A stretch of DNA of 41,543 nucleotides from a virus. Its lineage: Duplodnaviria; Heunggongvirae; Uroviricota; Caudoviricetes. The notes beneath the pieces are model-generated. The model saw nothing but the letters and a program-made list of their open reading frames with translations, was not told the DNA's origin and searched no databases. Each line of letters starts with the position of its first letter. Within the stretch, counting starts at the first letter, position 1. The translations under genes were made by a program, and so were the position numbers. The stretch covers positions 1-41,543 of the IMG/VR virus record IMGVR_UViG_2917413769_000002; one strand, written 5' to 3'. Shown piece by piece: positions 250 through 41,543 of the stretch.

Positions 250-360
250 CCACCGTGTAAACTCGCCGCCGGCTGGCAGCCATTCAATACTCGCACTATC
301 GAACGATCGCCAGCCAGCTGCAGCCCGTTCTTGCATACGACGTGGCTGCAGCACTCTCCT

Positions 361-1577: not shown

Positions 1578-1634
1578 CAGAGTAATACCCCCCAAGCGCC
1601 GGTATCGAAACCGCCGATATATTCGTTATCCATA

Positions 1635-3805: not shown

Positions 3806-3807
3806 GT

Positions 3808-4461: not shown

Positions 4462-4478
4462 TTGGTAGACTCCAGAAA

Positions 4479-4504
4479 GCAAAAAACCTCGCCGAAGCAA
4501 GGTT
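4479..4504 (-). terminator. intrinsic terminator after the exported-protein gene pair
   Basis: minus-strand AACCTTGC-TTCG-GCGAGGTT followed by TTTTTT; 8-bp stem with one G-U pair and a UUCG tetraloop, read directly from the sequence. Confidence 0.7.
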
Positions 4505-4534
4505 TGAGAAGTGATTGTAAATATTTACAGGGAG

Positions 4535-5032
4535 TTACTTAAACATCCGATAAGTTACCTGTCCGTTAGGTTTGGTCAGGCTGCCATAGCACTCAATTGT
4601 ATGAATAACCTTAACATTAAAATCATTCAGCCCTGAGTAATGAAGAGTGAAGTAATACTGCTTTGGACTCACCGTGTCATCTATGCCACTTTCTGTTTGT
4701 TCCGTATCAAACGTCTCAGGCCTAGTTAGGGTATTTCGAGCAATATCCTTGCACGCGAAAATGACATTATTTTTAGCAAGAACATCGACAGGAAGCTGGT
4801 TCTTTTTAGCCTCATCAGCAAGTTCTTTTTCATAAATGGCCTTACGCTTAAGCCTTGCAGTTTCTTTTTCTTCTGCTGACCGGATGGCCGCCTTATCACT
4901 CTCACTTCTTGATTCAGCAGGCTTACTTCGCGCCTGACTCGCTTGATCTTCCTCTTGGCTCGTATCAAAAATCGCATACGCCGCAAATCCAATCACAGCC
5001 AATAACGCAATCCTTAGCATTTTTGTGAACAT
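4535..5032 (-). CDS. membrane-anchored hypothetical protein (moron)
   Basis: 165-aa ORF; N-terminal hydrophobic segment LRIALLAVIGFAAYAIF followed by a charged low-complexity linker and a C-terminal domain; locally AT-rich; followed by its own terminator. Confidence 0.5.
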   Translation of the reverse strand: MFTKMLRIALLAVIGFAAYAIFDTSQEEDQASQARSKPAESRSESDKAAIRSAEEKETARLKRKAIYEKELADEAKKNQLPVDVLAKNNVIFACKDIARNTLTRPETFDTEQTESGIDDTVSPKQYYFTLHYSGLNDFNVKVIHTIECYGSLTKPNGQVTYRMFK

Positions 5033-5037
5033 GGCCG

Positions 5038-5382
5038 TCAGTCCTTAATATTCTTACACGGAAACGAGCCAATTACTCTTGGAGCATCCATACTGTTTTG
5101 GAGAAGCTGGACATTCAGGAAAGATTTCCCGTTACGCTTCACAAATTCAAAGCCATAATTGTTGCCGTCACGCGCAGGCATCAGCCCCATATTCCACACA
5201 GCCTTAGATTCATCACCTTGAGCGCCGAGGTATTTTACTTTTTGACTTGTGACTAATTCGCCGTTAATACGCACAAGGCCTTCAGCATCCGATAATGTCA
5301 TCTTATAGCCGCCGCACTGGAAAGCTGCGAAAGAAGGTAACGAAACCAATAGCCCAACCAGCAACGCATATTTTCTCATCAT
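5038..5382 (-). CDS. secreted hypothetical protein with Sec signal peptide (moron)
   Basis: 114-aa ORF; N-terminus MMRKYALLVGLLVSLPSFAA looks like a cleavable signal peptide; two Cys in the mature part; sits inside the baseplate cluster. Confidence 0.5.
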   Translation of the reverse strand: MMRKYALLVGLLVSLPSFAAFQCGGYKMTLSDAEGLVRINGELVTSQKVKYLGAQGDESKAVWNMGLMPARDGNNYGFEFVKRNGKSFLNVQLLQNSMDAPRVIGSFPCKNIKD

Positions 5383-6449
5383 CCACCCCGGTTAAAAGCT
5401 TCCTGAGTTTTAATATCCACCGCACCACGCGCCTCGCACATCATATCCATGTACCACGCTTGGCCCCTTGTGTCGCCAGTGTACATAATCCCGCGTACAA
5501 TATAAACGCCATCCGTGGCGATGCTGGCTGTCATTTGCTTGGACACTGGCAGCGCTACGTTCGAATTGCCGTTTATGGTATCGTCGAAATAACGACCAGC
5601 CGTCATGGATATGTCGTTACCCGGTAGCGCTGTTTTGTATACCGACGCTTGATCCAGCTGAATGAGCCCGTTAACCCGGATGTTCGGGTTTATCAGCGCG
5701 CGAACGTTCACACCGTTACCGATGGTCTGCTGCGGCATGCCGATCAGCCCGGTGGCGCTGTTGAGCACAATCGCTTCGTGAACATACTCGTTATTCGCCA
5801 CCATCTGGCGCTGACCGTCCACGAACAGCCAGGTTGCACCACATTGTCCAGCCACGTTATCCATAAGATGCCGGGTCATACCAAACAGCACCCGGCCCCG
5901 GGGGAATACGGTGGCAGGCATTTCAGCCGTCAGGCCTTCAGTCGCACCTTTAGCCTCAAAATCTTTCATCAACGCGCGGTTCACATCTGCGACCGTATAA
6001 CCGGCTGCCAGCGTCTGCGAGGTTATGCTAGTGGCAAAAGCCAGATCCGTATCCGCTGCCTGAATCAGGACATAGGAATCAATGGGATTCTCCTTACCAG
6101 TCACCGAGTATCGAATTTCGCCGCTGTAAATCAGCCCATAGTTTCGCCCATCGCTCTGACCCACATCTGCCGCGTCAACCTCTCGCACCTTTCCGACGTC
6201 GCTGGCCGATACTTCCGGCGCTATGCCGTCGTAACCGGCGATCAGTCGCACCTTTGAAAACTCTTTACCGGTGATCCGATTTGAGGTATCGGCTGACAGG
6301 TTGTAAATCTTGAAGGTTCCCAGCCGGGACGCGCTGCTGATGTTGAACCAGTCGATCGTAAAGGTCACCTTAAAATCGCTAAGCTCAATGCCCTTCCCAT
6401 TCTCGTCCACGAGCTGCAGCTCGAAATGTCTCATCCAGTTCAGTGACAT
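5379..6449 (-). CDS. baseplate hub / tail protein D-like (Mu gp44, P2 gpD position)
   Basis: 356-aa ORF downstream of tape measure and small tail proteins; size and synteny. Confidence 0.55.
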   Translation of the reverse strand: MSLNWMRHFELQLVDENGKGIELSDFKVTFTIDWFNISSASRLGTFKIYNLSADTSNRITGKEFSKVRLIAGYDGIAPEVSASDVGKVREVDAADVGQSDGRNYGLIYSGEIRYSVTGKENPIDSYVLIQAADTDLAFATSITSQTLAAGYTVADVNRALMKDFEAKGATEGLTAEMPATVFPRGRVLFGMTRHLMDNVAGQCGATWLFVDGQRQMVANNEYVHEAIVLNSATGLIGMPQQTIGNGVNVRALINPNIRVNGLIQLDQASVYKTALPGNDISMTAGRYFDDTINGNSNVALPVSKQMTASIATDGVYIVRGIMYTGDTRGQAWYMDMMCEARGAVDIKTQEAFNRGG

Positions 6450-6451
6450 GT

Positions 6452-6754
6452 TTACTCCGTTGATACCAGTAAATGACTGCGGCCGCCCAGGTCGGTTTTC
6501 GTCGGATAATCCTGCGCGCTGTCGTCGCAGACCACCACCAGCTTAAAGCCCAGCCTCATATAGGCATTCTGCGCCAGCAGGTCAGCGCCGGTGACAAGGG
6601 GAATGCCGGAGATAACCGGCTCCCCTCTGTCGTTCTGCAGGTCCATAATCCAGTACAGATCCCGCCAGTTGATGCTGATCCGCCAGGTAGCGCCTGCGAT
6701 ATTGATACTGAACTGCTGGTTATCCGCCGTCAGCGGTATTTCCTGAATAGCCAT
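6452..6754 (-). CDS. phage tail protein (hypothetical)
   Basis: 100-aa ORF tightly packed in the tail module; ATG at 6754. Confidence 0.4.
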   Translation of the reverse strand: MAIQEIPLTADNQQFSINIAGATWRISINWRDLYWIMDLQNDRGEPVISGIPLVTGADLLAQNAYMRLGFKLVVVCDDSAQDYPTKTDLGGRSHLLVSTE

Positions 6755-7341
6755 TAACCCAGCCCCAGTAATGACACACCTCTTTGCAGCAAGGAGCTGT
6801 TAGGTGGCTTCGTCGTTTTAGTGCCGGTGTTCAGTACCGCAGAGGTACTTACACCATCTTTCATGTCTGTTTTATCCGCCACGCTGATTTGTTGCGTTTG
6901 GGATATAAGGACTTCGCGCAGGGTGAGAACGGCGGACAGGACATTTTCGGTCGTCTTATCCGTCGTCACCTCCAGCGCGCGGATCAGCATGTTGCTGTAT
7001 AGTCGCTTACCAGTCACCACATCGAAGGGGATTCTGCTATTCTGCAGCTCCAGTAACTTCTGATACGTCTCCTGCGGGCTAAGGCCAAGACTCAGCCCGA
7101 TTTTTGATGTGTCGGCAAAATCCAACAGCGAGCCACCACCAGCAAAACCGACCTCCATCGTCACTTCAGACGGTTTTTTATAGGCGTGGTCAGCAACTGC
7201 GGCCCCGACTTCAACGGGGTGCTCTGTGATTTCCAGTGTGTCGCTGTGCTTCTCAGAAATAACGACACTTGGAATTATCAAATCGTAACTTGGACCGAAT
7301 CGCCTAGATTGCTGATGAAACAGCGTAGAGAGAATGTCCAT
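6754..7341 (-). CDS. phage tail protein (hypothetical)
   Basis: 195-aa ORF directly downstream of the tape measure gene with coupled stop/start. Confidence 0.4.
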   Translation of the reverse strand: MDILSTLFHQQSRRFGPSYDLIIPSVVISEKHSDTLEITEHPVEVGAAVADHAYKKPSEVTMEVGFAGGGSLLDFADTSKIGLSLGLSPQETYQKLLELQNSRIPFDVVTGKRLYSNMLIRALEVTTDKTTENVLSAVLTLREVLISQTQQISVADKTDMKDGVSTSAVLNTGTKTTKPPNSSLLQRGVSLLGLG

Positions 7342-9362
7342 TATCCCACCTTCGTCTGGTTGCCGCGCATCACCTGGGCGTTTGATGACTGCTGCCGACG
7401 TTCGACTTCATTACCGACCGCCCGGGCGTCACCACCACCGTAGATGTGATACGTGTTCTGCTGGTTCACCTCTGGCGCTCTGCCATACCCCGGCATGTTG
7501 CTCATCACTTTAGGGATGTAGTTGCGGGTTTCCTGAGGCATGAGGGCCATCCCGTGCTTTTGCACATTCCCTATTCCCCAGTTGTAAGACGCTAACGCCT
7601 TACTCAGGTCGCCGCCGTTCGCCTGAAGTAACTGAGCCAGATATTTCGCAGCAGCCTGCGCTGACTTCTCTGGGTCGAAAACATCGTTCCCGCGTAAGCC
7701 CATGTCGCGCGCGGTGCCATCCATAAACTGAAATAGCCCCTTTGCACCAGCGCCAGATGTTGCGAACTGATTACCGCCAGATTCCGTAATGGCAACGCTT
7801 TTCAGCAGCCCGGCGGGAAGTTGATAAACTGCCTCCAGTCTGTTGAGCATAGGTCCCATCCAGTCAAGGAGAACTTTACCCTGAGCGGTCGCGCGCGGAC
7901 GTTTCACTGACTGTGCGTGCTGTTCCGGTTCGTCGTCTGAAGGCCCTGATTCCCCGCGTAAACGTCTGCCCACACTGCGGGGATCCCACCCCGTTTTATC
8001 TTTAATCCAGTCAGCAACGCTATTAGCGCTATCCTCCACCATCGGAGTGGCGCTCGGCTGTCCGCTGCCTTGGTTAAGTAGCTGCTTGCCAATGCTGGCG
8101 GCCTGCGCCCAGTTCCCGTCTTTAATGGCATTCAGCAGGTCGGCAATCATGTTCAGCATCTTGCCGAACTCGCCCATTTGCGAAATAAAGTTATCGAAAT
8201 CCCATTTCAGGGACCACGATTTCGGGTCTATGCCGAGCAGCTTCGCCAGCGCTTGTGTCAGATCTTTGACGGTCTTTTGCAGGTCGCCAATCATCTTGAC
8301 GGCCTGGTCAACCTCTGGCTTCCACTTCTGCCAGTCAATCAGGCTCTGACCACCTTCCTTCCACGTTTTGTAATCTTCCCACAGCAGCGCTATCCCGGCG
8401 GCCAGCGCCGTAATTAAGCCAATCGGGGACATCCAGAAGGTGCTGTTCAGAATGCGCAGCGCGATGGTCAGCGCGCCGAATAAGGCGATCATCTCACGCG
8501 TCTGTTTATCGAGCGACTTCCACCAGGTAAGAAGATCAGACGTCCCCTCAATCAACCGGAAGAACAGACGACCAATAATATCCCCGAGCGCCAGAATACC
8601 CTTGATGGCTTTCGTCAGGGTCTGCTCGATGCGCGGGAAGTTATCCAGAATGTGGCGGCGCAGCGTGTCCAGCGAACCCGCCAGACCACCAGCAAGATTA
8701 GAGCCGATTTTGTCACGGGCCATGCCTGCCATCGCGCCGAACTCGCGCAGGGAGGTCATGAATTTGTTGGAGCTTCTGGCCGCTTCGTCAGCATTAAAGC
8801 CGATAGCTTTCGCCATTGCGCTGTACTGCCCGGTGAAACCGCCCACACCCCGGCGCATCGCCATGAGGGTATTTTCGTCAATACCCAGCATCTGCGCATA
8901 CTGGTTAGCCCTGTAATACGGCATGCTGCTGAGCTTCTGGCCGACGCCCGTAAAAATAGCGGCCATGTCACGCATGTTACCGCTGGCGTCACGGGTCTGT
9001 ACGCCCAGACGGTTCAGGAAACCTTCCGCTCCGGGGTTATGCCGCATAAACCGGGCGAGGCTTTCCAGAGAGGAACGCGCCGCGTCGACGCTGCCGCCCA
9101 CCTGCGAAACCGCATAGCCAATAGACTGAATCCCCTGAACCGTCGCGCCGGTGCGCTGTGACGCCCAGTAGAGATTATCCAGACCGGAGGCGATCTTAGC
9201 CGTGAAGGCCACCACGGCAAGCGCGGCACCTTCGACAGCCAGCCCCATTTTGATGGCGTTTGCGGTCGTACCGGCGAGAACAGAGTCGAACTTTGACGCG
9301 CCCGCTTCGTCGATATCGAAACCGAGCGAAACAAGGAAATCTTTAATAGTCTCAGCGTTCAT
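7341..9362 (-). CDS. tail tape measure protein with C-terminal lytic transglycosylase (SLT) domain
   Basis: 673-aa ORF rich in Ala/Gly/Met repeats; C-terminal segment ...ESGGNQ...GAKGLFQF...YNWG... carries the catalytic-Glu and AxGLMQ-like motifs of soluble lytic transglycosylases; follows the chaperone gene. Confidence 0.8.
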   Translation of the reverse strand: MNAETIKDFLVSLGFDIDEAGASKFDSVLAGTTANAIKMGLAVEGAALAVVAFTAKIASGLDNLYWASQRTGATVQGIQSIGYAVSQVGGSVDAARSSLESLARFMRHNPGAEGFLNRLGVQTRDASGNMRDMAAIFTGVGQKLSSMPYYRANQYAQMLGIDENTLMAMRRGVGGFTGQYSAMAKAIGFNADEAARSSNKFMTSLREFGAMAGMARDKIGSNLAGGLAGSLDTLRRHILDNFPRIEQTLTKAIKGILALGDIIGRLFFRLIEGTSDLLTWWKSLDKQTREMIALFGALTIALRILNSTFWMSPIGLITALAAGIALLWEDYKTWKEGGQSLIDWQKWKPEVDQAVKMIGDLQKTVKDLTQALAKLLGIDPKSWSLKWDFDNFISQMGEFGKMLNMIADLLNAIKDGNWAQAASIGKQLLNQGSGQPSATPMVEDSANSVADWIKDKTGWDPRSVGRRLRGESGPSDDEPEQHAQSVKRPRATAQGKVLLDWMGPMLNRLEAVYQLPAGLLKSVAITESGGNQFATSGAGAKGLFQFMDGTARDMGLRGNDVFDPEKSAQAAAKYLAQLLQANGGDLSKALASYNWGIGNVQKHGMALMPQETRNYIPKVMSNMPGYGRAPEVNQQNTYHIYGGGDARAVGNEVERRQQSSNAQVMRGNQTKVG

Positions 9363-9539
9363 TATCCTCTCTCCATTTCTCTATACGGCGCTGGTTGTCT
9401 GCCTTAACGGCCAGGTGGTCATTCATCAGCGCGATATCGCACAGATCGACTGATCCATCCTTCAGCGCGTAATAAGGGATTAACCCGGCGTCAACCGGGT
9501 CAAGAAGATAAGACAGCCCGTCAGGCAGGCTGTTGAGGG

Positions 9540-9992
9540 TTAACCCTGAGGCTGGCCCGGCGTCGCGCTGGTAGGGCTCACGGGCAAAAAATTTCCCAGT
9601 GAATCGGCGACCACCCGCGCCACCAGCTGCAGCATGGTCAGCAGGTCGATATCATCGAACATCAGCTGACCGCTGTTGAATACCGGCGTCCATCCGTCCA
9701 TGTGCTTGCGTGATACCACGGCCAGGCACGGATGAATAATCGCGTTGGTGTCTTCTTCGGTCAGGGAAGACAGCTCCTCAGCGATACGCGGGAGCAGGGT
9801 TTCAAACACCGGTTTCAGCTGATCGAATTTCACAGTGTCGATTTTGCCATCAGCAGGCAGAAGGGAGCGAATGCTCCCAAATTCTGACATCATTCCCGCC
9901 AGCACCGGCAGCAGTTTGCGGGTCACTTTCAGCTGGTCAAAAACGCTGAGTTTCGCCACGCGGTAATCGTGGCCTTTGATTGAGCATTCCAT
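9540..9992 (-). CDS. tail assembly chaperone (lambda G-like), with a -1 frameshift extension to 9352
   Basis: 150-aa ORF between tube and tape measure genes; slippery heptamer near its 3' end opens a 77-codon -1 frame ending at the tape measure start. Confidence 0.6.
   Translation of the reverse strand: MECSIKGHDYRVAKLSVFDQLKVTRKLLPVLAGMMSEFGSIRSLLPADGKIDTVKFDQLKPVFETLLPRIAEELSSLTEEDTNAIIHPCLAVVSRKHMDGWTPVFNSGQLMFDDIDLLTMLQLVARVVADSLGNFLPVSPTSATPGQPQG
9585..9591 (-). other. candidate programmed -1 ribosomal frameshift slippery site (T_TTT_TTG)
   Basis: minus-strand GGA AAT TTT TTG CCC; heptamer T TTT TTG in zero frame; -1 frame is open for 77 codons with no stop until TGA at 9352-9354. Confidence 0.6.
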
Positions 9993-9995
9993 CTG

Positions 9996-10436
9996 TTAAA
10001 ACTCTCCGAGAACCTGGTCGATTTTGCCGCAGTCAAACACCCAGGGCATCGTATTACCGGCCTTAGCGTTGGCGTTATCCGGCTGTTTCTGGAACGCCAC
10101 GCTGCGCGCCGTGATGATGTCTCCGCTCACCTTGTTTCGGATCACAATGACGTTGTTTCCCCAGGTGCCTGAGGACTGACTCTGCGCGTTGTACGCCAGC
10201 GACAGCTTTTTGTTTGTCGGCGAGGTCTTCAGCAGGTTGACGGTTACCGTGCCGCTTTTATCTGCGTGCAGGCTGTGCATCACTTCGCCATCAGCACCAA
10301 TTGTCATGGTGTTTTTAGGACCGCCCATTGCAACGGTGATCCCCTCCTCTGAACTGGCGGAACCGTAGCCCAGATCAATCTCGCCGGTCGGGCCGGAGAG
10401 GGACGCCGTGACGTCCATAAAAGAATAAGTAGCCAT
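9996..10436 (-). CDS. tail tube protein
   Basis: 146-aa ORF immediately downstream of the sheath gene; size and synteny. Confidence 0.65.
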   Translation of the reverse strand: MATYSFMDVTASLSGPTGEIDLGYGSASSEEGITVAMGGPKNTMTIGADGEVMHSLHADKSGTVTVNLLKTSPTNKKLSLAYNAQSQSSGTWGNNVIVIRNKVSGDIITARSVAFQKQPDNANAKAGNTMPWVFDCGKIDQVLGEF

Positions 10437-10447
10437 TCATGTTCTCC

Positions 10448-11593
10448 TTAGCGAACGACGTTGATCTGCACATCAGCGAAATGAACCGCACCCGCCAGCT
10501 TACAGGCCACCTGAATAACCGGTGCCTTACGGGCTTCGCGGTCTGCCTGCGCCTGCTCGGAAATCGGCTGCGCGTAGACGTAATAGCCTTTTGTCAGCGT
10601 ATCGCCGGAATCCAGCTGCCCGATCGGGCCGCCATTCCATACACCGGCAGCCACCAGCCCGTTTGTGACAGACTGATCCATCGACTGTTCGACATTGGAA
10701 AGGAGGCGCGTAACGCCAGCATCGGTCTGTGGGACTTTGGTTGTGCTGGTGTAGAGCAGGTTATACAGGTTGGTCTGAACGTAGTTCTGCAGCCAGTCGA
10801 GCCCGTGGCGCTCATCGAAGAAATCGCCGCTGGACATGACGCCCTGCTGCAGGATTGCCGTATCGTTTTCGTAATACACGTAGACGTTACAGTTTTTGTT
10901 ATCCAGCGCCTTAGCCTGGCTGAGGTCCAGTGTCTCGTAGGTGATACCCGGCTCCTGCTTGAATTTCAGGGTAATGGTGGTGTTGCTGCCGTTGAAATTC
11001 ACCGTGAACGCGCGACCAAATGCAGACAGCGCGGCGTACTTGCTGCTGGTGGAATACTGCACAAACGTGCGACCGTATTTTGCCGCCTTCAGCTTATAGG
11101 CGAGATCGGTTGTGGATGTCGTGTTAATCGCTTCCGAGTCTTGAGTGGTAATTGCCAGAATACGACTGAGGCTGGAAGCTTCGATCGCGGCGGCCACGCT
11201 CAGCCAGTCGGCATCATCGATCTCTTCATCATCGGCTACGCCCAAACCGTACCAACTCGTGTAATTCAGTACAGCGTTCACGGCCTGCTGCAGCGTTTCC
11301 GTAGAACCGTCTTCAGCCGATACCAGCGTTTTAGCCCAGCGACCAACATACACCTGCTGAGGTTTCGGTGATTGCGAGAAATACACCGTAGCGGCTTCAT
11401 ATTCCGGGCTATCCACACCGAAATCTGTGCCTATATCTTCGGGGGATGAGTAAAGGCGAATACGCTCAGTAACCGGGATAACCGTTGAGCTCCCGAGAAT
11501 GAGCAGCGAACCAAAGTTTCGACCAGTAGCCGCACGCGGCCCAATGATCACGTCGACATTGACGACGTTTGATACAGGTAATCCCTGCGGCAT
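10448..11593 (-). CDS. tail sheath protein
   Basis: 381-aa ORF upstream of the tube gene; size, composition and synteny typical of contractile-tail sheath proteins. Confidence 0.75.
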
Positions 11594-11596
11594 AAT

Positions 11597-12223
11597 TTAG
11601 TCTCCGAAAAATGAGACGGGCGCATCTTGCAGCGTCCGGACGTTGTAGGTACGAATGTTTTTGCGGGACAGCGTAATGGTGAGGTCGTATCGCCTCACCC
11701 ACTGGTTATTAATGAGTTCTGGCAGGTTGTAGATAGTCCCGGCGTCCACCAGCGAAAGCCCCGAGCGGTTCAGCTCGGCGTTGTTTTGCTCGACGAATAT
11801 TCCCGCGCGGAAAGTTGATGCAGTGTTGGCCCCCAGAGGGCCATAGAAGCAGCAAATCACCGTTACCTGTTCCCATGTCCATTGCTCGGACTGTTCTTCC
11901 GAAACCTGAACATCGGACTGGCTCAACGGCTGAGGAACGGTAGTGATACCGAAGGCGCACCACGTTACCCCGTTGTTGGGGATCTGCGGCTGCGGGTCAG
12001 TCCATCGGGGGAAAACAAGAGCGGCCGGCAAGCCAGAAACACCACGAATCCACCGGCTGATTTCACGCTCCAGCGCCTCGTCGTATTGGGGTAGATCCCC
12101 GACAGGCGTCAGATAACCGCGCGCGTTGCTGTCGTTACTCAACTGGCGTCCCTCCGTTAAAGTCCACCAGCTCACAATGCGCCTGGACGAATCCGGCGCC
12201 GTAACTGGTATACGGGTCGACAA
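11597..12223 (-). CDS. tail completion / neck protein (hypothetical)
   Basis: 208-aa ORF directly upstream of sheath gene. Confidence 0.4.
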   Translation of the reverse strand: MSTRIPVTAPDSSRRIVSWWTLTEGRQLSNDSNARGYLTPVGDLPQYDEALEREISRWIRGVSGLPAALVFPRWTDPQPQIPNNGVTWCAFGITTVPQPLSQSDVQVSEEQSEQWTWEQVTVICCFYGPLGANTASTFRAGIFVEQNNAELNRSGLSLVDAGTIYNLPELINNQWVRRYDLTITLSRKNIRTYNVRTLQDAPVSFFGD

Positions 12224-12539
12224 ATGTCACCCGGTAAGCACGCCCGTTATAGCTCACGATATCGGCATCAAGTCGCGGGGCACTGTCTGTACCAGGCTGG
12301 CCCTGGGTTAATCGGAACTGCGTCACGATGAGGATCGCGCCGCTGATGTTCTGGCCTGCCGCCATTCGCCTGGCTTCCAGAGAACGGTCAACCGTCACCA
12401 CTCCAGAGAACGGGATATCCTGAGCTGTGTTTTTCGTGAAATTGTCCTCATCCACCGTCTGAACCTGCCGGTGACACACCAGACTGGTGTCCATGAAGTC
12501 GGGATCGAGAAGAACATCGCTCACATCGAGAAGAGGCAT
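12135..12539 (-). CDS. head-tail joining protein (hypothetical)
   Basis: 134-aa ORF in the head-tail connector region; start uncertain (89-nt overlap with the downstream gene). Confidence 0.4.
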   Translation of the reverse strand: MPLLDVSDVLLDPDFMDTSLVCHRQVQTVDEDNFTKNTAQDIPFSGVVTVDRSLEARRMAAGQNISGAILIVTQFRLTQGQPGTDSAPRLDADIVSYNGRAYRVTFVDPYTSYGAGFVQAHCELVDFNGGTPVE

Positions 12540-13084
12540 TATTTTTTCCTCACGACGTAGTTAATTGAGCGCAGCAGGTAACCGTGGGCATACAGCGGTT
12601 TTTCGCCGGGAATGCCCTCGGCCCTTCTGCGTTCGAGGGTTTTCTCAGAAAGTGGGTGCAGCCGGTCACCAGCCCCGATAACGGCTTTTGCAGCGTCACG
12701 GGCAATCTGTCCGGCGCTCTCCAGCTCACGCACTGCTGCTTCAGTCTGCCCCTCCAGCGCGGCGGTTGCCGCTGCCTTGAGGTGTGCAGTGGTTCGGGGT
12801 TTTGAATCCTCGATCCCCATATCCAGAAAAGGACGCGGGGGAAGCGTGACTGTCGTACCGTCGATTTCCGCCGTTGCACCCGTCGAGTGGAGATATCCCA
12901 GTTCCGCGTTATTAATCGGAGAGCCATCCTCACGCCCTGCCTTGTCCTCAGGTATTCCTACCAGCACATCCATTCCGGATAGCTGGCGGAGGGATTCCAG
13001 AACAGCCACGGCGTTATCAGCACGAACCGTTAACCCACTTTTCATAGCAGCTGCCTGCCACCAGCACCGAACATCGACCACCAC
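12539..13084 (-). CDS. head-tail adaptor protein (hypothetical)
   Basis: 181-aa ORF in connector region. Confidence 0.4.
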   Translation of the reverse strand: MVVDVRCWWQAAAMKSGLTVRADNAVAVLESLRQLSGMDVLVGIPEDKAGREDGSPINNAELGYLHSTGATAEIDGTTVTLPPRPFLDMGIEDSKPRTTAHLKAAATAALEGQTEAAVRELESAGQIARDAAKAVIGAGDRLHPLSEKTLERRRAEGIPGEKPLYAHGYLLRSINYVVRKK

Positions 13085-13452
13085 CAGTAGAACTCGCGCC
13101 CGTAGGCGGTGCTGTTCCAGAAACCGGCATCCGGATTGATTACCCCGGACACGTCATAGCTCACTGAAACCTTATCCACGGACTTAGAGGACACTACACC
13201 TGCAGCGCCGTTGCTGTTCACACCACCAGCGGCAGCGGCGGCCAGCGTGCGGCCGCGCAGCTCCGTATAGTGAGCTGTGAATAGCTCGGCCAGGTAGACG
13301 AACTGATCGCCCTGTACGTCCTGATTCAGGAGTGAATCGGCCTGCCCCAGATAGAAATTCACTGAGGGGTCAGGGTAGCGGGTTTTATCGGCGAACTCGG
13401 GAAAGTCGGTGCGGAACTGCTCGTTAGTCGGAAGCCTGCTGTTTTTTGGCAT
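13042..13452 (-). CDS. head-tail connector protein (hypothetical)
   Basis: 136-aa ORF downstream of capsid genes. Confidence 0.4.
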   Translation of the reverse strand: MPKNSRLPTNEQFRTDFPEFADKTRYPDPSVNFYLGQADSLLNQDVQGDQFVYLAELFTAHYTELRGRTLAAAAAGGVNSNGAAGVVSSKSVDKVSVSYDVSGVINPDAGFWNSTAYGREFYWWWSMFGAGGRQLL

Positions 13453-20776: not shown

Positions 20777-21380
20777 TCAGCCCATGAATTTTTTGTAGAT
20801 ATCTGCGACCTCATGCGGGGACAGGTTCGCCGCGTCGGCTTTGGCTGCCTCGTCCATATTGGTGAACGATTCGAAAATTTTCGGCGCTCCAAGCTCCATA
20901 AGCAGGGTTTCCGGAACCTTTATTCCCTCAGCCTCAAGCAGCTGCGCCGCCTGCAGCGCGGTGTATTTACCATCTACCTTGTGCTTCATCACCTCACGAA
21001 GCACATCACGCTGACGGTCCTCTTCCCCCATAAACACTGCGGCCGAGTCCAAGAGCTTTGGCAAACACCGCAACATCATTGTGCGTTGGTAAAACATCCT
21101 CGACGGTTGTTTTCAGTCCATCAGGGGATTTGGTGACAATCTTTCGCTTCCGAACGTCCAGGCTTTTACCTGCAACGTTGTTAATCTTTTCCATCAGAAC
21201 TTCGCGAGCCTCGGTAAAGGCACGATTAAAGTCGGCGTGTTCCTTGCGCCAGTTGCGGATAGTCGCCTCGTCAATTTCCAGTCGCTGGGCAACCATACGG
21301 TTTGAGATCTTGTTACGGGCCAGAGCCATATCAATAACGATACCGACGTAGGCCTTCTTAAAGCTATTTTTACGGGCCAT
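20777..21380 (-). CDS. terminase small subunit, interrupted by an apparent frameshift (two ORFs 21006-21380 and 20777-21097)
   Basis: N-terminal ORF has HTH-like start MARKNSFKKAY...; C-terminal ORF continues in another frame with 92-nt overlap; G5 run at 21025-21029 (minus strand) is the candidate shift site. Confidence 0.6.
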
Positions 21381-21626: not shown

Positions 21627-22631
21627 TCAGTCCAAATCCATCTCCACCACTTCACCGAACAGGTGACCGTAAACGTCCATTGTGGTTTTGATGTTCGAAT
21701 GCCCAATAAGTCGGGAAACCTTCAGAATATCGACGCCTTTGTTTGCCAGGCGAGATACAGCAAAGTGGCGAAGATGATGGAATCGCTTAATGCCATAGTC
21801 GTTCAGGGTTCTGACGAGAACGCCCTGAGTGCCGTAACTGGTAGCAAGGCATGCGCCGGTAAACTGATTGCAGATAAGAGGCTCAGAGGAACCCAGCTTA
21901 TTTTTATCCAGCAACGCGAAAAGCTCACGCGGCATCCGTACCCGGCGCTCCACTCCTCTTTTCAGCCCCTCATGTATAACGCCGTCAACAACATGCCCCC
22001 GGATGTCGATCCAGTCGGCTGACACGTCGTTATAAGTAACCGCCAGAGCCTCACCGATACGCAGGCCACAAATCCCGAGCCAGCACGCGATACGCTCACG
22101 AACTGGCGCGTTATTCAGTAGCTCCCTGACCGATGATGATGGCGGTATGGTGATGGGTCGACGCTTCCGGCGCGCTGGACGGTCAACAGGGTTAAAAGTG
22201 ATGAGCCGCTTTTCCACCAGCAGGAAGAAAGCCGAACGAATCCAGCGATGGCAGCCGGTGCGAACCGAATCAACGATATCGCGATGGCTGATATGGAGAA
22301 TATTTTTTTCCAGTATCGGCCCGTCTACAGCGAGAAGATCGTGACGGCATTTCGTATATGACGACAGCCGTATGATATTTTTTTCCAGCTTGCCGGCCTG
22401 ATACCCCAGATAAAACAGAATTAACTTTCGGAAAGTCCAGGAATGGTCTATTCCGGTCCAGCTGGCGGTTCGACAATCCAGCTCAATATTCTGTTTTTGC
22501 CAGAAAAGATGTGCGGCATCATCAATATTCTTAAAGATGCGGCGGCGCCCATGACCGGATTTTTCATCCTTCCAGTGGACGTAATATTTTGATTGTCCAT
22601 TGGCATCAGTGGATTCTTTTATCGAAGCCAT
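21627..22631 (-). CDS. tyrosine site-specific recombinase (integrase family) with arm-binding-like N-terminal domain
   Basis: C-terminal catalytic signature R (LRIGEALA), H-x-x-R (HHLRH) and Tyr (…TTMDVYGHL); N-terminus GQSKYYVHWKDEKSGHGRRRIF resembles AP2-like integrase arm-binding domains; ATG 22631 with GAGGA upstream. Confidence 0.75.
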   Translation of the reverse strand: MASIKESTDANGQSKYYVHWKDEKSGHGRRRIFKNIDDAAHLFWQKQNIELDCRTASWTGIDHSWTFRKLILFYLGYQAGKLEKNIIRLSSYTKCRHDLLAVDGPILEKNILHISHRDIVDSVRTGCHRWIRSAFFLLVEKRLITFNPVDRPARRKRRPITIPPSSSVRELLNNAPVRERIACWLGICGLRIGEALAVTYNDVSADWIDIRGHVVDGVIHEGLKRGVERRVRMPRELFALLDKNKLGSSEPLICNQFTGACLATSYGTQGVLVRTLNDYGIKRFHHLRHFAVSRLANKGVDILKVSRLIGHSNIKTTMDVYGHLFGEVVEMDLD

Positions 22632-22695
22632 ACTGAACAATCCTCACTCAAAAAACATTATCAAAGCCACTCGGTGAATGGCTTTTGTAATGAAT

Positions 22696-32774: not shown

Positions 32775-33602
32775 ATGAAAAAGGTTATTTTCGCTGTTCT
32801 GATTTCCGCCGCCGCTGCTGGCCTGACTGGCTGCGATCGTGTCGAACCCGGCAACGTAGGTATCAAGGTGAACAAGCTGGGCGACGACAAAGGCGTTGGT
32901 GAGGTTGTCGGCGTTGGCCGCTACTGGACCGGCTGGAACACGGAGGTCTACATCTTCCCGACCTTCAAACAGATGAAAACCTACGACGACGCGTTCAATT
33001 TCCAGATGAGCGACGGTACGACAATCGGTTATCACATCGGCGTGGCGTACAAAGTTGATCCAACCAAAGTTACCACCGTTTTCCAGACCTACCGGAAAGG
33101 CGTGGACGACATTACCGATACCGACCTTCGACAGAAGATCGCCGATGCGCTTAACCGTCTTGCCAGCCGCATGAGCACCGACAAGTTCATTGATGGTGGT
33201 AAAGCGGATCTGCTGGAAAGTGCCCTGAAAGAGATCCAGTCCGACATGGGGCCGGTCGGCATTCAGGTTATTAGCCTCTCCTATGTTGGCCGTCCGGAGT
33301 ACCCACCGACTGTTATCGACAGCATCAACGCCAAAGTCACCGCCAACCAGAAGACGCTGCAGCGCGAGCAGGAGGTGAAACAGCGTGAAGCTGAAGCCAA
33401 CATGCTGCGCGCGGAAGCGGATGGCCAGGCAGACGCAAAACTGAAGCTGGCAGAAGCCGAAGCGAAATCTATCCAGATCCGTGGGCAGGCCATGCGTGAA
33501 AACCCCGAGGTGCTGCAGCTGGAAGCCATTAACAAATGGAACGGCACCCTGCCGCAATACATGACCAGCGGCGCTGGCACTCCATTTATCCAGGTTAAGT
33601 AA
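32775..33602 (+). CDS. SPFH / band-7 (prohibitin-like) domain lipoprotein
   Basis: N-terminal lipoprotein signal ...AAAAGLTGC; SPFH-like core followed by an Ala/Glu/Lys-rich coiled-coil (...QREQEVKQREAEANMLRAEADGQADAKLKLAEAEAK...). Confidence 0.7.
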   Translation: MKKVIFAVLISAAAAGLTGCDRVEPGNVGIKVNKLGDDKGVGEVVGVGRYWTGWNTEVYIFPTFKQMKTYDDAFNFQMSDGTTIGYHIGVAYKVDPTKVTTVFQTYRKGVDDITDTDLRQKIADALNRLASRMSTDKFIDGGKADLLESALKEIQSDMGPVGIQVISLSYVGRPEYPPTVIDSINAKVTANQKTLQREQEVKQREAEANMLRAEADGQADAKLKLAEAEAKSIQIRGQAMRENPEVLQLEAINKWNGTLPQYMTSGAGTPFIQVK

Positions 33603-35484: not shown

Positions 35485-35667
35485 ATGAGTACAGACTTCA
35501 TGACAGAACAAGAGGTTTCTGAGTTGCTTCAGAAAAAAAGAACAGCTTTATATAACCTCAGAAAAAAACATGGTTTCCCTGAGCCAGTCCTCACCCACCC
35601 AGCGAGATATAGCCGCAAAGCCGTGGAAAACTGGATCAGTGCAGGCGGAGTTAACCGAGCTGTTTAA
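35485..35667 (+). CDS. AlpA / excisionase-family HTH protein
   Basis: 60-aa ORF; position next to and convergent with the integrase. Confidence 0.6.
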   Translation: MSTDFMTEQEVSELLQKKRTALYNLRKKHGFPEPVLTHPARYSRKAVENWISAGGVNRAV

Positions 35668-36820
35668 CGTGCCAGAGGATTTTATCAGCATACAGCTCGT
35701 AAGCTGCTTTCTGCTCAGGTAACCAGTCGTGTTTATTATACACGGCCATCACCCCGCCAAGCTCGTGCCCCAGCATCTTTTCGGTGACATGGGGCATCAC
35801 CCCTTCTGCAGATAAATTCGTTACCAACGAACGGCGGAAATCATGCGTTCGCCACTCCGGGATATCGATTTTACCTCTCAATTTTTTCATATAGAGATTT
35901 GACGACGAACGGTCTATAGCGCGGTCAAGCGTCTGTCCGGGAAACAGCACAGAGTTCCCACTATTCAGCAGCCGCTCAACATAGGGTTTAACCTGGTCAA
36001 AGATAGGCCGTCGGATGACATTTCCCATCTTGGAATGCTCAGATGGAGTCGTCCAGATCAGATCATCCATATTGAACTCATCCGGCGTTGAAAGCCGCAG
36101 CTCAGATAAGCGTGGTCCCCAGAGCAATAGCAGCTGGTGCAGCACTTTATTGGAGGAGACGATCTTGTTATTTTCCAGTGCCAGCCAAACCTTCGCCAGT
36201 TCGGTGTATGTTAACACCCGCTCACCGACGTCAGGCTTCTTGCCTATGGTTTTCACACTTAACTTCATCAGCTCGCATGACGGAACCAACTGCCGGCTGA
36301 TGCACCAGTTAATTACCGAGCGTAGCTGTAACAGCAGAACGCGCGCTTTCTTTTTGTTCAGGCTTTCCTGTTTATCGAAAAAACGCACCCATGCAGAAAC
36401 CGGTACATTCGCCACTGGCGCATCTTCAAATTGTGTGTACATCGTGTTGTACACGACCGATTTATAAAGCGTCTGGGTGTTGGGCTTCAGACCGGATGCA
36501 TACTTATCCCACCACTGATCAAGGCATTCTTTGAGTGTCAGCTCGCCATCTTCACGGGCAAAATAATTTTTGGGGTTCACACCCTTCGTGTACAATGCGC
36601 GCATCTCACCGACGATAACCCTAGCGTCCTTGAGGGATGTCGAAGGATAGCGGCCAACCGTCAGGCGCACTGGTTTACCGTTCCATCGATAACGATACTG
36701 AAAAGTGATTGTGCCAGTTGGCGTGATCCGGGCACTGAGACCATCACCATCGGTGATTTCTGGTGCCGCAGAATACGGTTTACCGTTGATGCTCCGTAGT
36801 TTAGTGTCGCTGAGTGCCAA
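35651..36820 (-). CDS. int: P4-type tyrosine integrase
   Basis: C-terminal catalytic region ...WRTHDFRRS...GHELGGVMAVYNKH...; N-terminal ALSDTKLRSI...KPY... block typical of P4-family integrases; likely TTG start at 36820 (ORF track extends to 36931). Confidence 0.8.
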   Translation of the reverse strand: MALSDTKLRSINGKPYSAAPEITDGDGLSARITPTGTITFQYRYRWNGKPVRLTVGRYPSTSLKDARVIVGEMRALYTKGVNPKNYFAREDGELTLKECLDQWWDKYASGLKPNTQTLYKSVVYNTMYTQFEDAPVANVPVSAWVRFFDKQESLNKKKARVLLLQLRSVINWCISRQLVPSCELMKLSVKTIGKKPDVGERVLTYTELAKVWLALENNKIVSSNKVLHQLLLLWGPRLSELRLSTPDEFNMDDLIWTTPSEHSKMGNVIRRPIFDQVKPYVERLLNSGNSVLFPGQTLDRAIDRSSSNLYMKKLRGKIDIPEWRTHDFRRSLVTNLSAEGVMPHVTEKMLGHELGGVMAVYNKHDWLPEQKAAYELYADKILWHVKQLG

Positions 36821-37015
36821 TGCGCTATATCCTGTACACAAGGGTTTCAGGCATTCTGTACTCAATCTGTACTCAATGGCAAGTGAACGAACGCAAATAT
36901 CAGCATAAACAAGCTGGTAAATGATGAACAAAGACGCACTTACATCTTGATGTCAAAGCAGTAAAGGCGGTAGAATCAGCATCACGGTGAACAACCAAAA
37001 ACATCGCCGATCAAT

Positions 37016-37090
37016 GTCCCCTTAGTTAAATGGATATAACGAGCCCCTCCTAAGGGCTAATTGCAGGTTCGATTCCTGCAGGGGACACCA
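37016..37090 (+). tRNA. argW: tRNA-Arg (anticodon CCU), argW-like
   Basis: 75 nt: 7-bp acceptor stem GTCCCCT/AGGGGAC, T-arm GCAGG-TTCGATT-CCTGC, anticodon loop CTCCTAA, 3' CCA encoded. Confidence 0.9.
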
Positions 37091-37250
37091 TTTATCAGTT
37101 CGCTCCCATCCGTACCAGTCCGCAAAATCCCCTGAATATCAAGCCTTCCGTATATTCACGGTTCGTCATGGTTCGCGTCAGATCGTTGACAGCCGCACAC
37201 CATGACGGGTAAAAAGTGGATAAAATAATTTACCCACCGGATTTTTACCC

Positions 37251-37802
37251 ATGCTCACCGTTAAGCAGATTGAAGCAGCAAAGCCGAAAGAAAAACCATA
37301 CCGCCTTCTCGATGGTAATGGCCTGTACCTTTATGTTCCTGTATCCGGGAAAAAGGTATGGCAGCTTCGCTACAAGATTGACGGTAAGGAGAAAATCCTG
37401 ACCGTCGGAAAATATCCGCTTATGACTTTGCAAGAGGCAAGGGATAAGGCATGGACCGCGAGGAAAGATATCTCGGTTGGCATAGATCCGGTAAAGGCGA
37501 AAAAGGCTTCGTATAACAACAATTCCTTTAGTGCGATTTACAAGGAATGGTACGAGCATAAGAGGCAAGTATGGTCAGTCGGCTATGCGACTGAACTTGC
37601 CAAAATGTTTGACGACGACATTTTACCTATCATCGGCGGTCTTGAAATTCAGGATATTGAGCCGATGCAACTTCTTGAAGTAATCCGCAGATTTGAAGAT
37701 CGCGGTGCAATGGAGCGAGCCAACCTTACTATATCTCGAATAGCACAAAGCCTTGCAATCCAGTGCAAAGCTTTGTGTGTCTCAGTTTTGTCTTACGCTT
37801 AA
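37251..37802 (+). pseudogene. truncated P4-type (IntS-like) integrase, N-terminal ~180 aa only
   Basis: starts 161 nt downstream of the tRNA 3' end in the same orientation; N-terminal KPYRLLDGNGLYLYV...GKK.W block; ends where AT-rich DNA begins. Confidence 0.7.
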
Positions 37803-37822
37803 ACGTATCTTTTTATTTAGAA

Positions 37823-38849
37823 TTATTTGATGCATTTAATTTTAGATTTTCTTTTCAAAATTAAGCCGCATGGAATCTCAATATATTTATAGCTTAAGTA
37901 TGAAGACAGAAGAATAAGTACTATAATTGGTACAACCATCAATAATTTATCTAACATATAGATATCACATAGCTTATTTATTATACATATAATGATCACA
38001 TGCGAAAGATATGTCGAGTATGACCAATCTCCAAGTTTAGATGCAATTCTTGATATAGTGCTATTGCCAATATTGTTTTCAAGACATAAAGCGGAAACAA
38101 TTAAAGCAGCGCAAGGGATTCCAATTTGGAGAAGTCTTTTTGATTCATTGCTAAAAAATATACTTATCAGTGATAATACGGATATTGTTAGTGCAGTTTT
38201 AACACCGATATTTCTGAATAGCCCATTATTATAACATATAGCTATTACCCCCCCCCATAACAAACTCAAACAACAGTTCATCATTATAGAAAAGAAATAC
38301 AGTAGACTCATTATTGCCAAGCCATGAAAACAAATTCATTACAACAAGAGGAATTAGAATACAGCAAATTTTTTTGTTGTTTTCAGGGAATAACAGAGAA
38401 ATAAATACGCACGTATAAAATAGCATTTCAAAATTAAGAGTCCACCCAACCGTTAGGGTTGGAATATACCAACCTATCTGTTGATTCATTACCGGAATAA
38501 AAGCAAGGCTTTTTAATACATTATTTAATCCAATCTCAGCAAACGGAATAACTCCGTGAAAATTGTATGATATTACCACTACCAGCAATGTGTAGAACCA
38601 ATATGCAGGAATAATTCTTACCATCCTATTGAGAGCAAATGACGTAGGTGTAATATTATTTTTCGATATTGACTTATAAATAATAAAGCCACTTATGATA
38701 AAAAACATATCGACACCATTGCCAGCCTTAAGTGCAATAGTGTGCATCAATTTGGATGATGCAGACCATTGAAACATGACTTGAGAAATATGATGATAAA
38801 CAACTGCCCAAGCAGCAAGTGCTCTTAAGATTTGTATTGACTTAATCAC
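37823..38849 (-). pseudogene. acyltransferase-3 family membrane protein (O-antigen acetylase-like), split by a frameshift at a G9 tract
   Basis: ORFs 38229-38849 and 37823-38320 overlap at a C9 run (38247-38255, plus strand); G8 would fuse them into a ~350-aa acyltransferase_3-like protein; strongly AT-rich region. Confidence 0.65.
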
Positions 38850-39478
38850 GGATAAATCCTAATGTTTTTTCATGCATTTTATACTATACCGATCGAAAGT
38901 CCAGTTCTCTTTTCCCATATCATACTATTCGCAATATACGGTGTAAAAATATGATAAACATCAACTTCCTTATTAATGTGTTAATAAACCATTTTTGTTA
39001 AATGCTTTCTATGCCCAATAAGAATCAATACTATAAGTTATAGAACCTTTTATTGTGGCATCAACATTGACATCGCTTTTATGTACAGGATCACAATCAG
39101 GGTTGTTAAATTTGTAAAAATCAATGTAATCATTTCCGCGATCGATGGCTCGCCGTAAACACTTGCCACCCAGTTGTCAAACCAAAAGTTATGGAAATAA
39201 CGCCAGATACTTGGTTTGCGGCTTTGTGCGGTTGGTTTCTCATTCTCATTTAACCTGATTGTTCTGCGAATACGTTCAGTCTTATAATAAACTCTATAGT
39301 AACCAAACTTCCATTTTGATGATATTTAACATCCCTAGCTAAAAGTCCAATACCATTTGTCGAATCACCAAATGTTATCGTAATCTCACCATCAATAGAG
39401 CGTCGTTCTCTTAATGACTCTAGTTGCAAGGCATTCTGAACAGATGTAATTCATGCTGCATAGATATTAGCCGAAGTG

Positions 39479-39733
39479 TTATATACAATAGTTGACCCTG
39501 CCAATAGTTAACCCTGCAGCGTCATCTGTACAGCCAATTAGCGGCATTCCCGTGCCAAATTTACCGCCATTTATGACAATATGATTACCTGGGCCATGTA
39601 TGTAGAAGTTCCATGAATATGATTTCCCCCACGAAAGCATTGGATTATTAAAAGTTACGTAATTATTATCTTTAACAGAAACAATCTGATCCCCCCCATC
39701 TTTTGGTATGCATATATACCCAATAAACATCAA
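39479..39733 (-). CDS. hypothetical protein, possibly a gene remnant
   Basis: 84-aa ORF in AT-rich DNA between the acyltransferase gene and the IS630-family remnant. Confidence 0.25.
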   Translation of the reverse strand: MMFIGYICIPKDGGDQIVSVKDNNYVTFNNPMLSWGKSYSWNFYIHGPGNHIVINGGKFGTGMPLIGCTDDAAGLTIGRVNYCI

Positions 39734-39763
39734 GATGTGGGTGTGAACACCCGAAAGTGATCA

Positions 39764-40700
39764 TTAATTCTGGATGTCAGCCGCTATATCCGGCAGCGTC
39801 TGGTTAAAAAAGACAGATATTGCGTCCCTGAACACTCGCGTACTGCTGAAGTAGCGATTATTCCGCGCATGTTCGTTCATTAATTTCCACATTCTTTCTA
39901 TCGGATTCAGGTTTGGACTGTAAGGGGGAAGGTAATGCAGCCTGATATTTACCACTTCCGCCCAGTCTTTCACTAACTGTGAACGGTGATAACCTGCTCC
40001 ATCCAGAATAACGTGGATTTTCTGGTTATAATCAGGATAAACCTTTCGTATATCATTGAAAAAACGGTATACATTATATTCATTAATGGTTTTATATTCG
40101 CAGATTAGCGGTGACGTCAGTGCTTTCAGATTTAGCGCCCCATGATATTCAGGCGTGTGCGGCTGCCTGTTGTTTTTACTGCTTTTTTCTGGCCTTTGCG
40201 TATCCAGCCATAGCTGATTTTAGTGGCCTGAGTCGGATGGACTCCATCAATAAAAAGAATCGGTTCATCACCCACAGTTGTTTTCAGTTCCACATAATAT
40301 TCAATGAATTGCCTTTGTTTCTCTTCACAGAATTTATGGGGAACGCCTGACGGTTTTTGTAGGTGAAACCATTACAATGCAGCCACTTATTCATCCCCAG
40401 AATGCTGAAAATGATGTTCCATGTCCGGGTGACAAACGCAATAACATCGCGGGTACGGTGAAATAAATTATCGGATAACTGACTGATAAAAAGGGCCATT
40501 TGTTCAGCTCTGAGTTTGCGGCCTGAGCCGCCGTTTTCGGCCTTCAGTTTCCCTTTATTCAGGAATTCACTGATATGGTGATCAATCGTTGTCTAATGTA
40601 GGCGTAAAGCCTGAGCAATCATGGCAGAACTCCAGCCTTCGGAGGCCAGAAGAATAGCTTAAATACGAGCTCTGACTCGCCCGTCACGGCTGGAATCATG
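39764..40700 (-). mobile_element. IS630-family transposase gene, frameshifted
   Basis: C-terminal ORF has the DDE region ...HVILDGAGYH... and the family signature YLPPYSPNLNPIE; upstream parts in other frames (…YGWIRKG…NIMG / ALNL…); two frame breaks at short homopolymers (~40138-40141 and ~40354-40358); element ends not defined. Confidence 0.65.
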
Positions 40701-41054
40701 AAGGCGTTCAAGTTCAGCTTTTTGTTGCTCAGTGATGAATATTTTCATGTTGGACAGCATGATCTCCGATTGCTGAAAAATCAATCAGTTCCAATGATCA
40801 CGGGTATAAAATCGTTAATTGTATTATCGTTACCTGACTGCAAATGCATTCCTACCCCCATTCCAATATCAGTTGCAGATGGTAACTCATAGGCACAACT
40901 GGTCATGGTGAGGTCATTACAGTTATTGATATAGTAGGCCGTTCTGACAGTACCATCACTTGTACAACAAACCATGTTCGAATACTGACCGTTCTCTATC
41001 CGGAAAGCTCCTGGCAAGACTTAAGCATCGTTTACCCGTCCAGAGTTGAAGTGG

Positions 41055-41543
<489 letters not shown>

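Follow-up and report, generated by a model that had tools for sequence, protein, structure and literature searches.

In the stretch of DNA analysed here, the 41,543-nt virus record IMGVR_UViG_2917413769_000002 (hereafter the window), a prophage integrase gene (int) lies on the 5' side of argW, the gene for tRNA-Arg(CCU), and is transcribed away from it, which raises the question of where the prophage recombined with its host chromosome. An earlier note on this DNA had described a complete prophage with an integrase start near 36820, upstream of and divergent from argW, a description borne out by ARAGORN, Pfam and the gene content, and had placed the attachment (att) site probably within 36821-37015 or away from the tRNA altogether. 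For the site itself we arrived at a different answer: with a probability of about 0.9, as judged from sequence comparison, the prophage integrated into the 5' end of argW by tyrosine-integrase recombination of the type known from phage Φ24B. The integrase would then stand upstream of and divergent from the tRNA because integration uses the tRNA 5' end, giving the mirror image of elements that use the 3' end.

The left attachment site (attL) was read from a public contig that reaches left beyond the window (GCA_004745435.1, PDIL01000012.1; locus L005) and is identical to window 1-13451 at 13451/13451 nt. On this contig the attL core TGTCCTCTTAGTTAAATGGATATAAC occupies the interval 160-185 nt left of window position 1, which is itself the ATG of the phage gene dinI, and the junction reads host ...GGGTATACTCATGCCGCGC-TGTCCTCTTAGTTAAATGGATATAAC-AACAAAAAC... 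phage. The right junction (attR) lies in the window and reads phage ...GCCGATCAA-TGTCCCCTTAGTTAAATGGATATAAC-GAGCC..., continuing into the remainder of the tRNA. The two cores differ at a single position, tRNA nt 5 (C in attR, T in attL), and the 26 bp take in the 5' acceptor strand together with all of the D-arm. In order, attL holds intact host sequence from the yfdC side with the native argW promoter, the tRNA 5' fragment, and phage DNA. The core was the sole direct repeat above chance between the prophage ends (the next longest were 10-11-mers), and no part of 36821-37014 was repeated above chance at the left prophage end (longest again 10-11-mers). The search for a repeat of 36821-37015 at the far end, which the earlier note had proposed, accordingly returned only the 26-bp core, which overlaps the 5' end of the tRNA and not its 3' end. 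Because the repeat between the ends covers tRNA nt 1-25, the tRNA 5' end is very probably the target, and we assign 36821-37014, from its sequence, to the P arm of the phage site, not to the crossover site. In the free phage, the junction of this site (attP) is expected to read ...GATCAAT-GTCCCCTTAGTTAAATGGATATAAC-AACAAAAAC....

Comparison with unoccupied chromosomes placed the boundary at the same point. Empty-site genomes (K-12, with the order mlaA-yfdC-argW-intS) matched the window solely from 37012-37015 rightward, so that homology is lost exactly at the tRNA 5' end, and this start of homology held in ~5,200 of 5,426 complete Escherichia coli genomes.

A contiguous attP was found in three packaged-phage genomes; each matches the tRNA from precisely nt +1, as far as nt 24 in Lyz12581Vzw, nt 23 in Hafnia phage yong2 and nt 22 in Pantoea phage AH07. 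The arrangement also recurs among relatives of the integrase, 58 of which were found in a scan limited to one genome per species. A tRNA-Arg(CCT) gene lay on the opposite strand beside int in 18 of the 20 relatives with at least 69% identity, and one degraded copy was seen in addition; one of the two relatives without a tRNA had too little upstream sequence to show one. In all, 19 divergent int/tRNA-Arg(CCT) loci came from ~13 genera (including Erwinia, Phytobacter, Enterobacter, Brenneria, Pantoea, Xenorhabdus, Salmonella, Providencia, Morganella, Proteus, Rouxiella and Limnobaculum), and the distance from the int start to the tRNA 5' end was ~171-204 bp, mostly 193-196 bp, cf. 195 bp in the window. 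No adjacent tRNA was found in relatives at or below 63% identity (Gilliamella, Vibrio, Shewanella and others). Because the relatives at 69% identity or more share the divergent arrangement and the distant ones lack the tRNA, we regard it, on this comparative evidence, as a signature of the integrase clade and not an oddity of the window. Two individual records may be mentioned: in Erwinia typographi no tRNA was detected beside an integrase of 81% identity, and a record titled Martelella alba (an alphaproteobacterium) has an 80%-identical integrase beside tRNA-Arg(CCT), a label that may reflect contamination or a mislabelled assembly.

The closest known recombination module is that of the Shiga toxin (Stx)-converting phages. 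The int-attP region matched 203 phage records at ~77% nucleotide identity, mostly Stx1/Stx2a-converting phages, among them vB_EcoP_24B (Φ24B; 77% over 94% of the query), AU5Stx1, PA28, Lyz12581Vzw and Stx2_H27V05_argW; int of the Stx2a argW phages was likewise 77% identical in nucleotides, and Klebsiella phages were also among the DNA matches to int. At the protein level, Int was 86% identical to that of the Stx1 phage AU5Stx1 (389/389 residues aligned) and the excisionase (Xis) was 80% identical to the product of its annotated xis. The features that depositors of related phages labelled 'attP' and 'duplication due to insertion' are the 24-bp GTCCTCTTAGTTAAATGGATATAA, which is argW nt 1-24 and agrees with attR (37016-37039) at 23/24 positions (C at nt 5) and with attL of the contig at 24/24. 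In the E. coli Stx2a lysogen 2013C-3277, attL consists of the yfdC flank and tRNA nt 1-24 followed by phage, and attR of phage followed by the whole tRNA, with an intact intS downstream.

According to published work on Φ24B, int of that phage is inverted relative to λ, is driven by a promoter of its own and is active in lysogens, with a small, experimentally validated xis beside its 3' end (PMC3064807), and recombination uses a 24-bp central crossover site and has unusually long attP (~427 bp) and attB (~93 bp) needs (PMC7581858); term searches of the two papers returned neither 'tRNA' nor 'argW'. Literature on Shiga toxin-producing E. coli names the site simply 'argW', a standard Stx-phage insertion locus (PMC8309913). 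The present Int shows traits of heterobivalent, λ-Int-like recombinases (a catalytic domain, an N-terminal arm-binding domain and repeated putative arm-type sites in both attP arms), and Int and Xis of this prophage are predicted to act at the att sites described above as in the Φ24B module.

The single mismatch between the cores bears on where the strands were exchanged. The tRNA-Arg(CCU) of the lysogen has a C5-G68 pair, cf. a U5·G68 wobble pair in ~99.5% of E. coli genomes, and the C5 allele was present in 26/5,426 of them. In each of the six C5 genomes sampled (6/6), a tyrosine integrase gene diverged from argW at a distance of 193-196 bp on its upstream side, with at least five distinct Int proteins and two downstream contexts among them, relative to a base rate of upstream occupancy of ~4% in E. 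coli (209/5,426); this association argues that C5 was phage-borne and not a later mutation. With T5, the E. coli allele, at attL and C5 at attR, the phage would have supplied at least nt 1-5 and the exchange would have occurred 3' of nt 5, which makes argW of the lysogen, as its junctions read, a chimera of phage sequence (at least nt 1-5) and host sequence (the remainder). Because the phage gave nt 1-5 and attP identity stops at nt 22-25, the exchange is bounded to nt 6-22. On the model of the anticodon-loop and T-loop classes of tRNA att site, strand exchange most likely took place inside the D-arm, with the D-loop AATGGATA as the overlap and the D-stem halves GTTA/TAAC as putative symmetric core sites.

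A gene rebuilt in this way would need a new promoter, because the host promoter (-10 TATACT at -17 to -12) stays at attL and int is divergent. A promoter scan of the P arm predicted a σ70 promoter aimed at argW, with a likely start near 36983 and a leader of ~33 nt that RNase P would remove. We aligned 24 P arms gaplessly by their distance from tRNA +1; these sequences were otherwise only weakly similar. Between -110 and -1 the near-invariant columns were T-69, T-68 and G-67 (23-24/24) and G-47 (23/24), together with the -10 columns T-45, A-44 and T-40 (23/24 each) and A-41 (22/24); most other columns held <1 bit, and GAACA near -28 to -22 was partly conserved. In the resulting TTG-18-TAnnAT pattern, the spacing and the distance to the tRNA were fixed and the spacer sequence was variable. 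Taken as the TTG of a -35 element and T1, A2, A5 and T6 of a -10 element, this is the conservation profile of σ70 promoters, and it makes a phage-borne replacement promoter for argW probable.

The P arm also holds three TGTAC(A/T)C repeats, and the P' arm, outside the window, holds AGTACAC and TGTACAC 11 nt apart, which are conserved in relatives as well; these are likely arm-type sites for the N-terminal domain of Int. Because two of the three P-arm repeats fall in the spacer of a promoter-like site on the minus strand (TTGCCA-18-CAGAAT), the layout suggests autoregulation of Int through arm sites in its own promoter, as has been shown for IntS of KplE1 (PMC2951348). At the other end of the prophage, we observed that the native argW promoter left at attL is directed across the 25-nt tRNA fragment towards phage DNA, in which dinI comes first, and that two LexA-box-like sequences, CTGTATGAATAACCAG and TACTGTATATTCAACCAGTA, precede dinI (L005 13452-13700 minus strand; window 1-249). 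Transcription from a host tRNA promoter could thus enter a phage gene under SOS control.

Taken together, the proposed course of events is as follows. The attP would carry tRNA nt 1 to ~25, exactly from +1, with its own σ70 promoter 40-69 nt upstream. Integration would displace the host promoter and the 25-nt 5' tRNA fragment to the far prophage end, forming attL, and would form attR by placing the phage promoter and at least nt 1-5 of the phage's tRNA sequence in front of the host-derived part of the gene; argW would thereby be rebuilt intact, with U5·G68 changed to C5-G68. The argW 3' end would have been used separately by an IntS/KplE1-type element that is now degraded. In the canonical pattern of tRNA integration (anticodon-loop, T-loop or 3'-end sublocation), attP carries the 3' part of the tRNA and a 3' fragment is displaced to the downstream side of the restored gene. 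The present locus is different: integration displaced the first 25 nt of the tRNA to the upstream side, and attP carries nt 1-22/25.

The earlier proposal, that the att site is intergenic within 36821-37015 or a target other than the tRNA and that the adjacency of argW is incidental, draws on the position of the integrase upstream of and divergent from the tRNA, which is atypical for 3'-end elements. We consider it very improbable, given that the sole repeat at the prophage ends is the core over tRNA nt 1-25 and includes nothing of 36821-37014, that empty-site homology stops at the tRNA 5' end, that the attP of free relatives holds tRNA nt 1-22/24, and that the same tRNA stands beside int at 19 loci in ~13 genera. 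Less credible still is a history in which the prophage first integrated at the tRNA 3' end or elsewhere and came to its present position by inversion or recombination between flanking elements. Although two mobile elements and several insertion sequence (IS) copies flank argW and make rearrangement plausible, in attL the intact host yfdC side with the native promoter runs straight into the tRNA 5' fragment, behind which phage DNA begins; unrelated hosts without the downstream island show this structure too, and free-phage attP has the same junction. A transposon target-site duplication was rejected as well, as the same core occurs in free-phage attP and across genera.

A further explanation accepts 5'-end integration and disputes its consequence: TTG-N18-TAnnAT would be no replacement promoter, serving instead the architecture of attP or a phage transcript, and argW would be silent or otherwise expressed. 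In its favour, the cell could in principle do without argW, as AGG is also read by tRNA-Arg(UCU). The conserved positions could also be protein-binding sites, since the Φ24B attP is described as unusually long (~427 bp; PMC7581858). We nevertheless hold this explanation to be unlikely, as the hexamer profile is σ70-like, the 18-bp spacer is variable in sequence, and the distance and orientation to tRNA +1 are fixed; moreover, the genes past the P' arm vary in identity and orientation (dinI here, a convergent LPD38 gene in an Stx2a phage), and every attP restores the tRNA exactly from nt +1, which is sensible only if the gene is kept functional. Three considerations weigh against integration into the argW 5' end as we describe it, or against parts of that account: attL falls beyond the window and was read from a public contig of identical sequence, C5/T5 could conceivably have arisen by mutation once the prophage was integrated, and the conserved TTG...TAnnAT could serve otherwise in attP, as a free-phage promoter or as protein-binding sites.

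Table 1. Features of the argW locus and its prophage, in window coordinates (nt, nucleotides; aa, amino acids; ORF, open reading frame).
Feature	Position	Strand	Basis or remark
Prophage, ~37.2 kb, contractile-tail type	1-37040		attL 160-185 nt before window position 1
Xis/AlpA-like helix-turn-helix excisionase, 60 aa	35485-35667	+	Pfam HTH_17
Φ24B-type tyrosine integrase, 389 aa, TTG start	35651-36820	-	Arm-DNA-bind_3 and Phage_integrase domains
P arm of attR	36821-37014	.	Arm-type repeats and promoters (putative functions); motifs kept in 24 related P arms
TGTAC(A/T)C repeats of the P arm, putative arm-type	36833, 36857, 36868		Conserved in relatives
Pint-like promoter	TTGCCA 36882-36877, 18-nt spacer, CAGAAT 36858-36853	-	Promoter scan
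Predicted σ70 promoter aimed at argW	-35 TTGATG 36947-36952, 18 nt, -10 TAGAAT 36971-36976	+	Promoter scan
attR core TGTCCCCTTAGTTAAATGGATATAAC	37015-37040	+	1 nt upstream plus tRNA nt 1-25; 25/26 match to attL
argW, tRNA-Arg(CCU)/(CCT)	37016-37090	+	ARAGORN; Rfam tRNA 65.6 bits; intact
KplE1/CPS-53-type 16-nt core CTGCAGGGGACACCAT, attL of downstream island	37076-37091	+	At tRNA 3' end
intS remnant	37251-37802	+	blastn vs K-12 and 2013C-3277; Pfam N-terminal domains only
Frameshifted acyltransferase (Acyl_transf_3), split in two ORFs	37823-38849	-	
IS remnants	39764-39973 and 41055-41543	-	

The remaining features of the locus are collected in Table 1. ARAGORN found one tRNA gene in the window, and an Rfam scan of 36500-37400 for further RNAs returned this tRNA alone; an antisense 'Plastid-ycf2' match within the same interval was far under its gathering score and was rejected. 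The int ORF as called runs from 35651 to 36931 on the minus strand (PF13356 Arm-DNA-bind_3, E 4.5e-18; PF00589 Phage_integrase, E 1.7e-14), and its true start was put at TTG 36820 (MALSDTKLR...) because homologues are 389 aa long. The int gene is read away from attP into the phage interior, and xis, which runs towards it, shares 17 nt with its 3' end. By gene content, window 1-37040 is a complete-looking prophage with structural and packaging genes (tail fibre assembly, baseplate J, sheath/tube, tape measure with an SLT domain, major head protein, protease, portal and large terminase); DinI, spanin, a CI-like repressor, Xis and Int make up the remaining functions. No near-identical prophage was found in the 5,426 complete E. 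coli genomes, where the best matches were 91% for the structural region and 81% for the int region.

Two accessory regions of the prophage were also observed. A second tyrosine-recombinase ORF (21627-22640, minus strand, 337 aa; Pfam Phage_integrase E 2.3e-15; PHROG category integrase) lies between the terminase and lysis genes in DNA of lower GC content (~0.49), beside a small ORF (21006-21380) with weak similarity to a transposase helix-turn-helix domain; this recombinase may be a moron, part of a nested element or an invertase-like recombinase. An SPFH/Band 7 lipoprotein-like gene (32775-33602, plus strand; Pfam E 6.8e-31) in the early/accessory region may be a lysogenic-conversion or exclusion gene.

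On the other side of argW, the truncated integrase that the earlier note had pointed out at 37251 proved to be intS with an internal deletion of ~0.68 kb near 37720, its first ~470 nt being 96-97% identical to K-12 and strain 2013C-3277. The core at the tRNA 3' end is that given for KplE1/CPS-53, CTGCAGGGGACACCAT (PMC2951348), and together with the deleted IntS/KplE1-type remnant it upheld the idea that the 3' site is held by a degraded island. With respect to KplE1/CPS-53, intS lies 3' of argW and the core is present, and an intact integrase and a second core bounding the island were absent from the window; a search of the window, including 37092-41543, for a second copy of the argW 3' end or core with up to two mismatches found none, and the island end may lie beyond the window. 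The island is heavily decayed and its GC content drops to 0.33-0.42. An intact Acyl_transf_3 homologue adjoins intS in strain 2013C-3277 (cf. the frameshifted copy here). The IS remnants comprise a DDE_3 transposase fragment and an IS3-family rve-domain transposase that reaches the window end. Where argW is occupied upstream in E. coli, its downstream side carries intS, dsdC directly, or a major facilitator superfamily transporter context. Because an upstream element is seen in these genomes both where the downstream island is present and where it is absent, the two sides of argW are filled independently, and the two separate integrations that had been proposed to flank this tRNA stand.

Some observations concern the host. 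The yfdC gene next to attL (L005 13640-14700) is frameshifted near codon 25. The mlaA-yfdC backbone is 90.9% identical to K-12, and the island downstream of argW is 96-97% identical; the ~91% identity of mlaA-yfdC suggests a host that probably belongs to an Escherichia lineage distinct from typical E. coli/Shigella.

Several consequences follow for annotation and for the tRNA itself. Prophage and island boundary finders that assume the tRNA 3' end will misplace the boundary of this prophage, and the present prophage now has exact att coordinates. The 24-bp 'crossover site' of Φ24B is explicitly tied to argW nt 1-24. The replacement promoter and the phage-derived C5 are modest additions on how such elements keep their target tRNA functional, and neither was found in the Φ24B, Stx-argW or Klebsiella-island literature examined. 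A bolder and rather doubtful extension is that phages take over and edit the host's only tRNA-Arg(CCU) gene, swapping its native promoter and, in this lineage, changing the acceptor-stem pair U5·G68 to C5-G68; this was not found stated in the same literature examined. If the phage promoter differs from the host promoter in strength or regulation, lysogeny would alter AGG decoding capacity, which, if true, could affect the expression of AGG-rich horizontally acquired genes.

Among known systems at argW, KplE1/CPS-53 (IntS) and the Sf6/HK620-type elements share the target gene with the present prophage, although they use its 3' end and lie downstream, whereas the present prophage uses the opposite end, and Int and IntS show relatedness in the arm-binding domain alone (34% identity over 71 aa). 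The closest likeness is to Φ24B and the Stx argW phages (TW14359, EC4115, AU5Stx1, Lyz12581Vzw), with which it shares an inverted int, an xis overlapping the int 3' end, a 24-26 bp core equal to argW nt 1-24/25, a position between yfdC and argW, and the P-arm layout of arm repeats and promoters. The rest of the present phage is unrelated to them: it is ~37 kb long, with a contractile tail, E217/PhiTE-like tail genes and no stx, whereas the Stx argW phages are short-tailed and lambdoid. At tRNA nt 5 its attP would have had C, cf. T in the Stx phages, and the backbone of its host shares ~91% identity with K-12.

Outside E. coli, islands and prophages of Klebsiella pneumoniae were reported in a preprint at the 5' end of arg2A, upstream of the tRNA gene (tDNA), with an integrase of clade I.d; the arg2 recombination site comprises the 5' acceptor half, D-stem and D-loop, and in two strains both ends of one tDNA are occupied by islands (Berríos-Pastén et al., bioRxiv 10.1101/2020.11.02.365908). 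The similarities are the position upstream of a tRNA-Arg gene, the 5' acceptor/D-arm site and the possibility of elements on both sides; the host genus differs, and arg2A may be the CCU isoacceptor and clade I.d may be the same family. Mentions of promoters in the preprint text searched were not tied to an element-borne replacement promoter. Elements at the 5' end of dusA also use a tyrosine integrase (Farrugia et al. 2015, PMC4482086); they resemble the present prophage in targeting a gene 5' end, so that the element must rebuild it, and differ in having a protein-coding target and probably another integrase family. The filters described in the Islander paper admit configurations with a 5' fragment upstream, without discussing them. 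The geometry at argW is thus a documented, uncommon way of using a tRNA gene that needs no new biology, and the present prophage is, by its sequence, a different phage carrying a Φ24B-type module.

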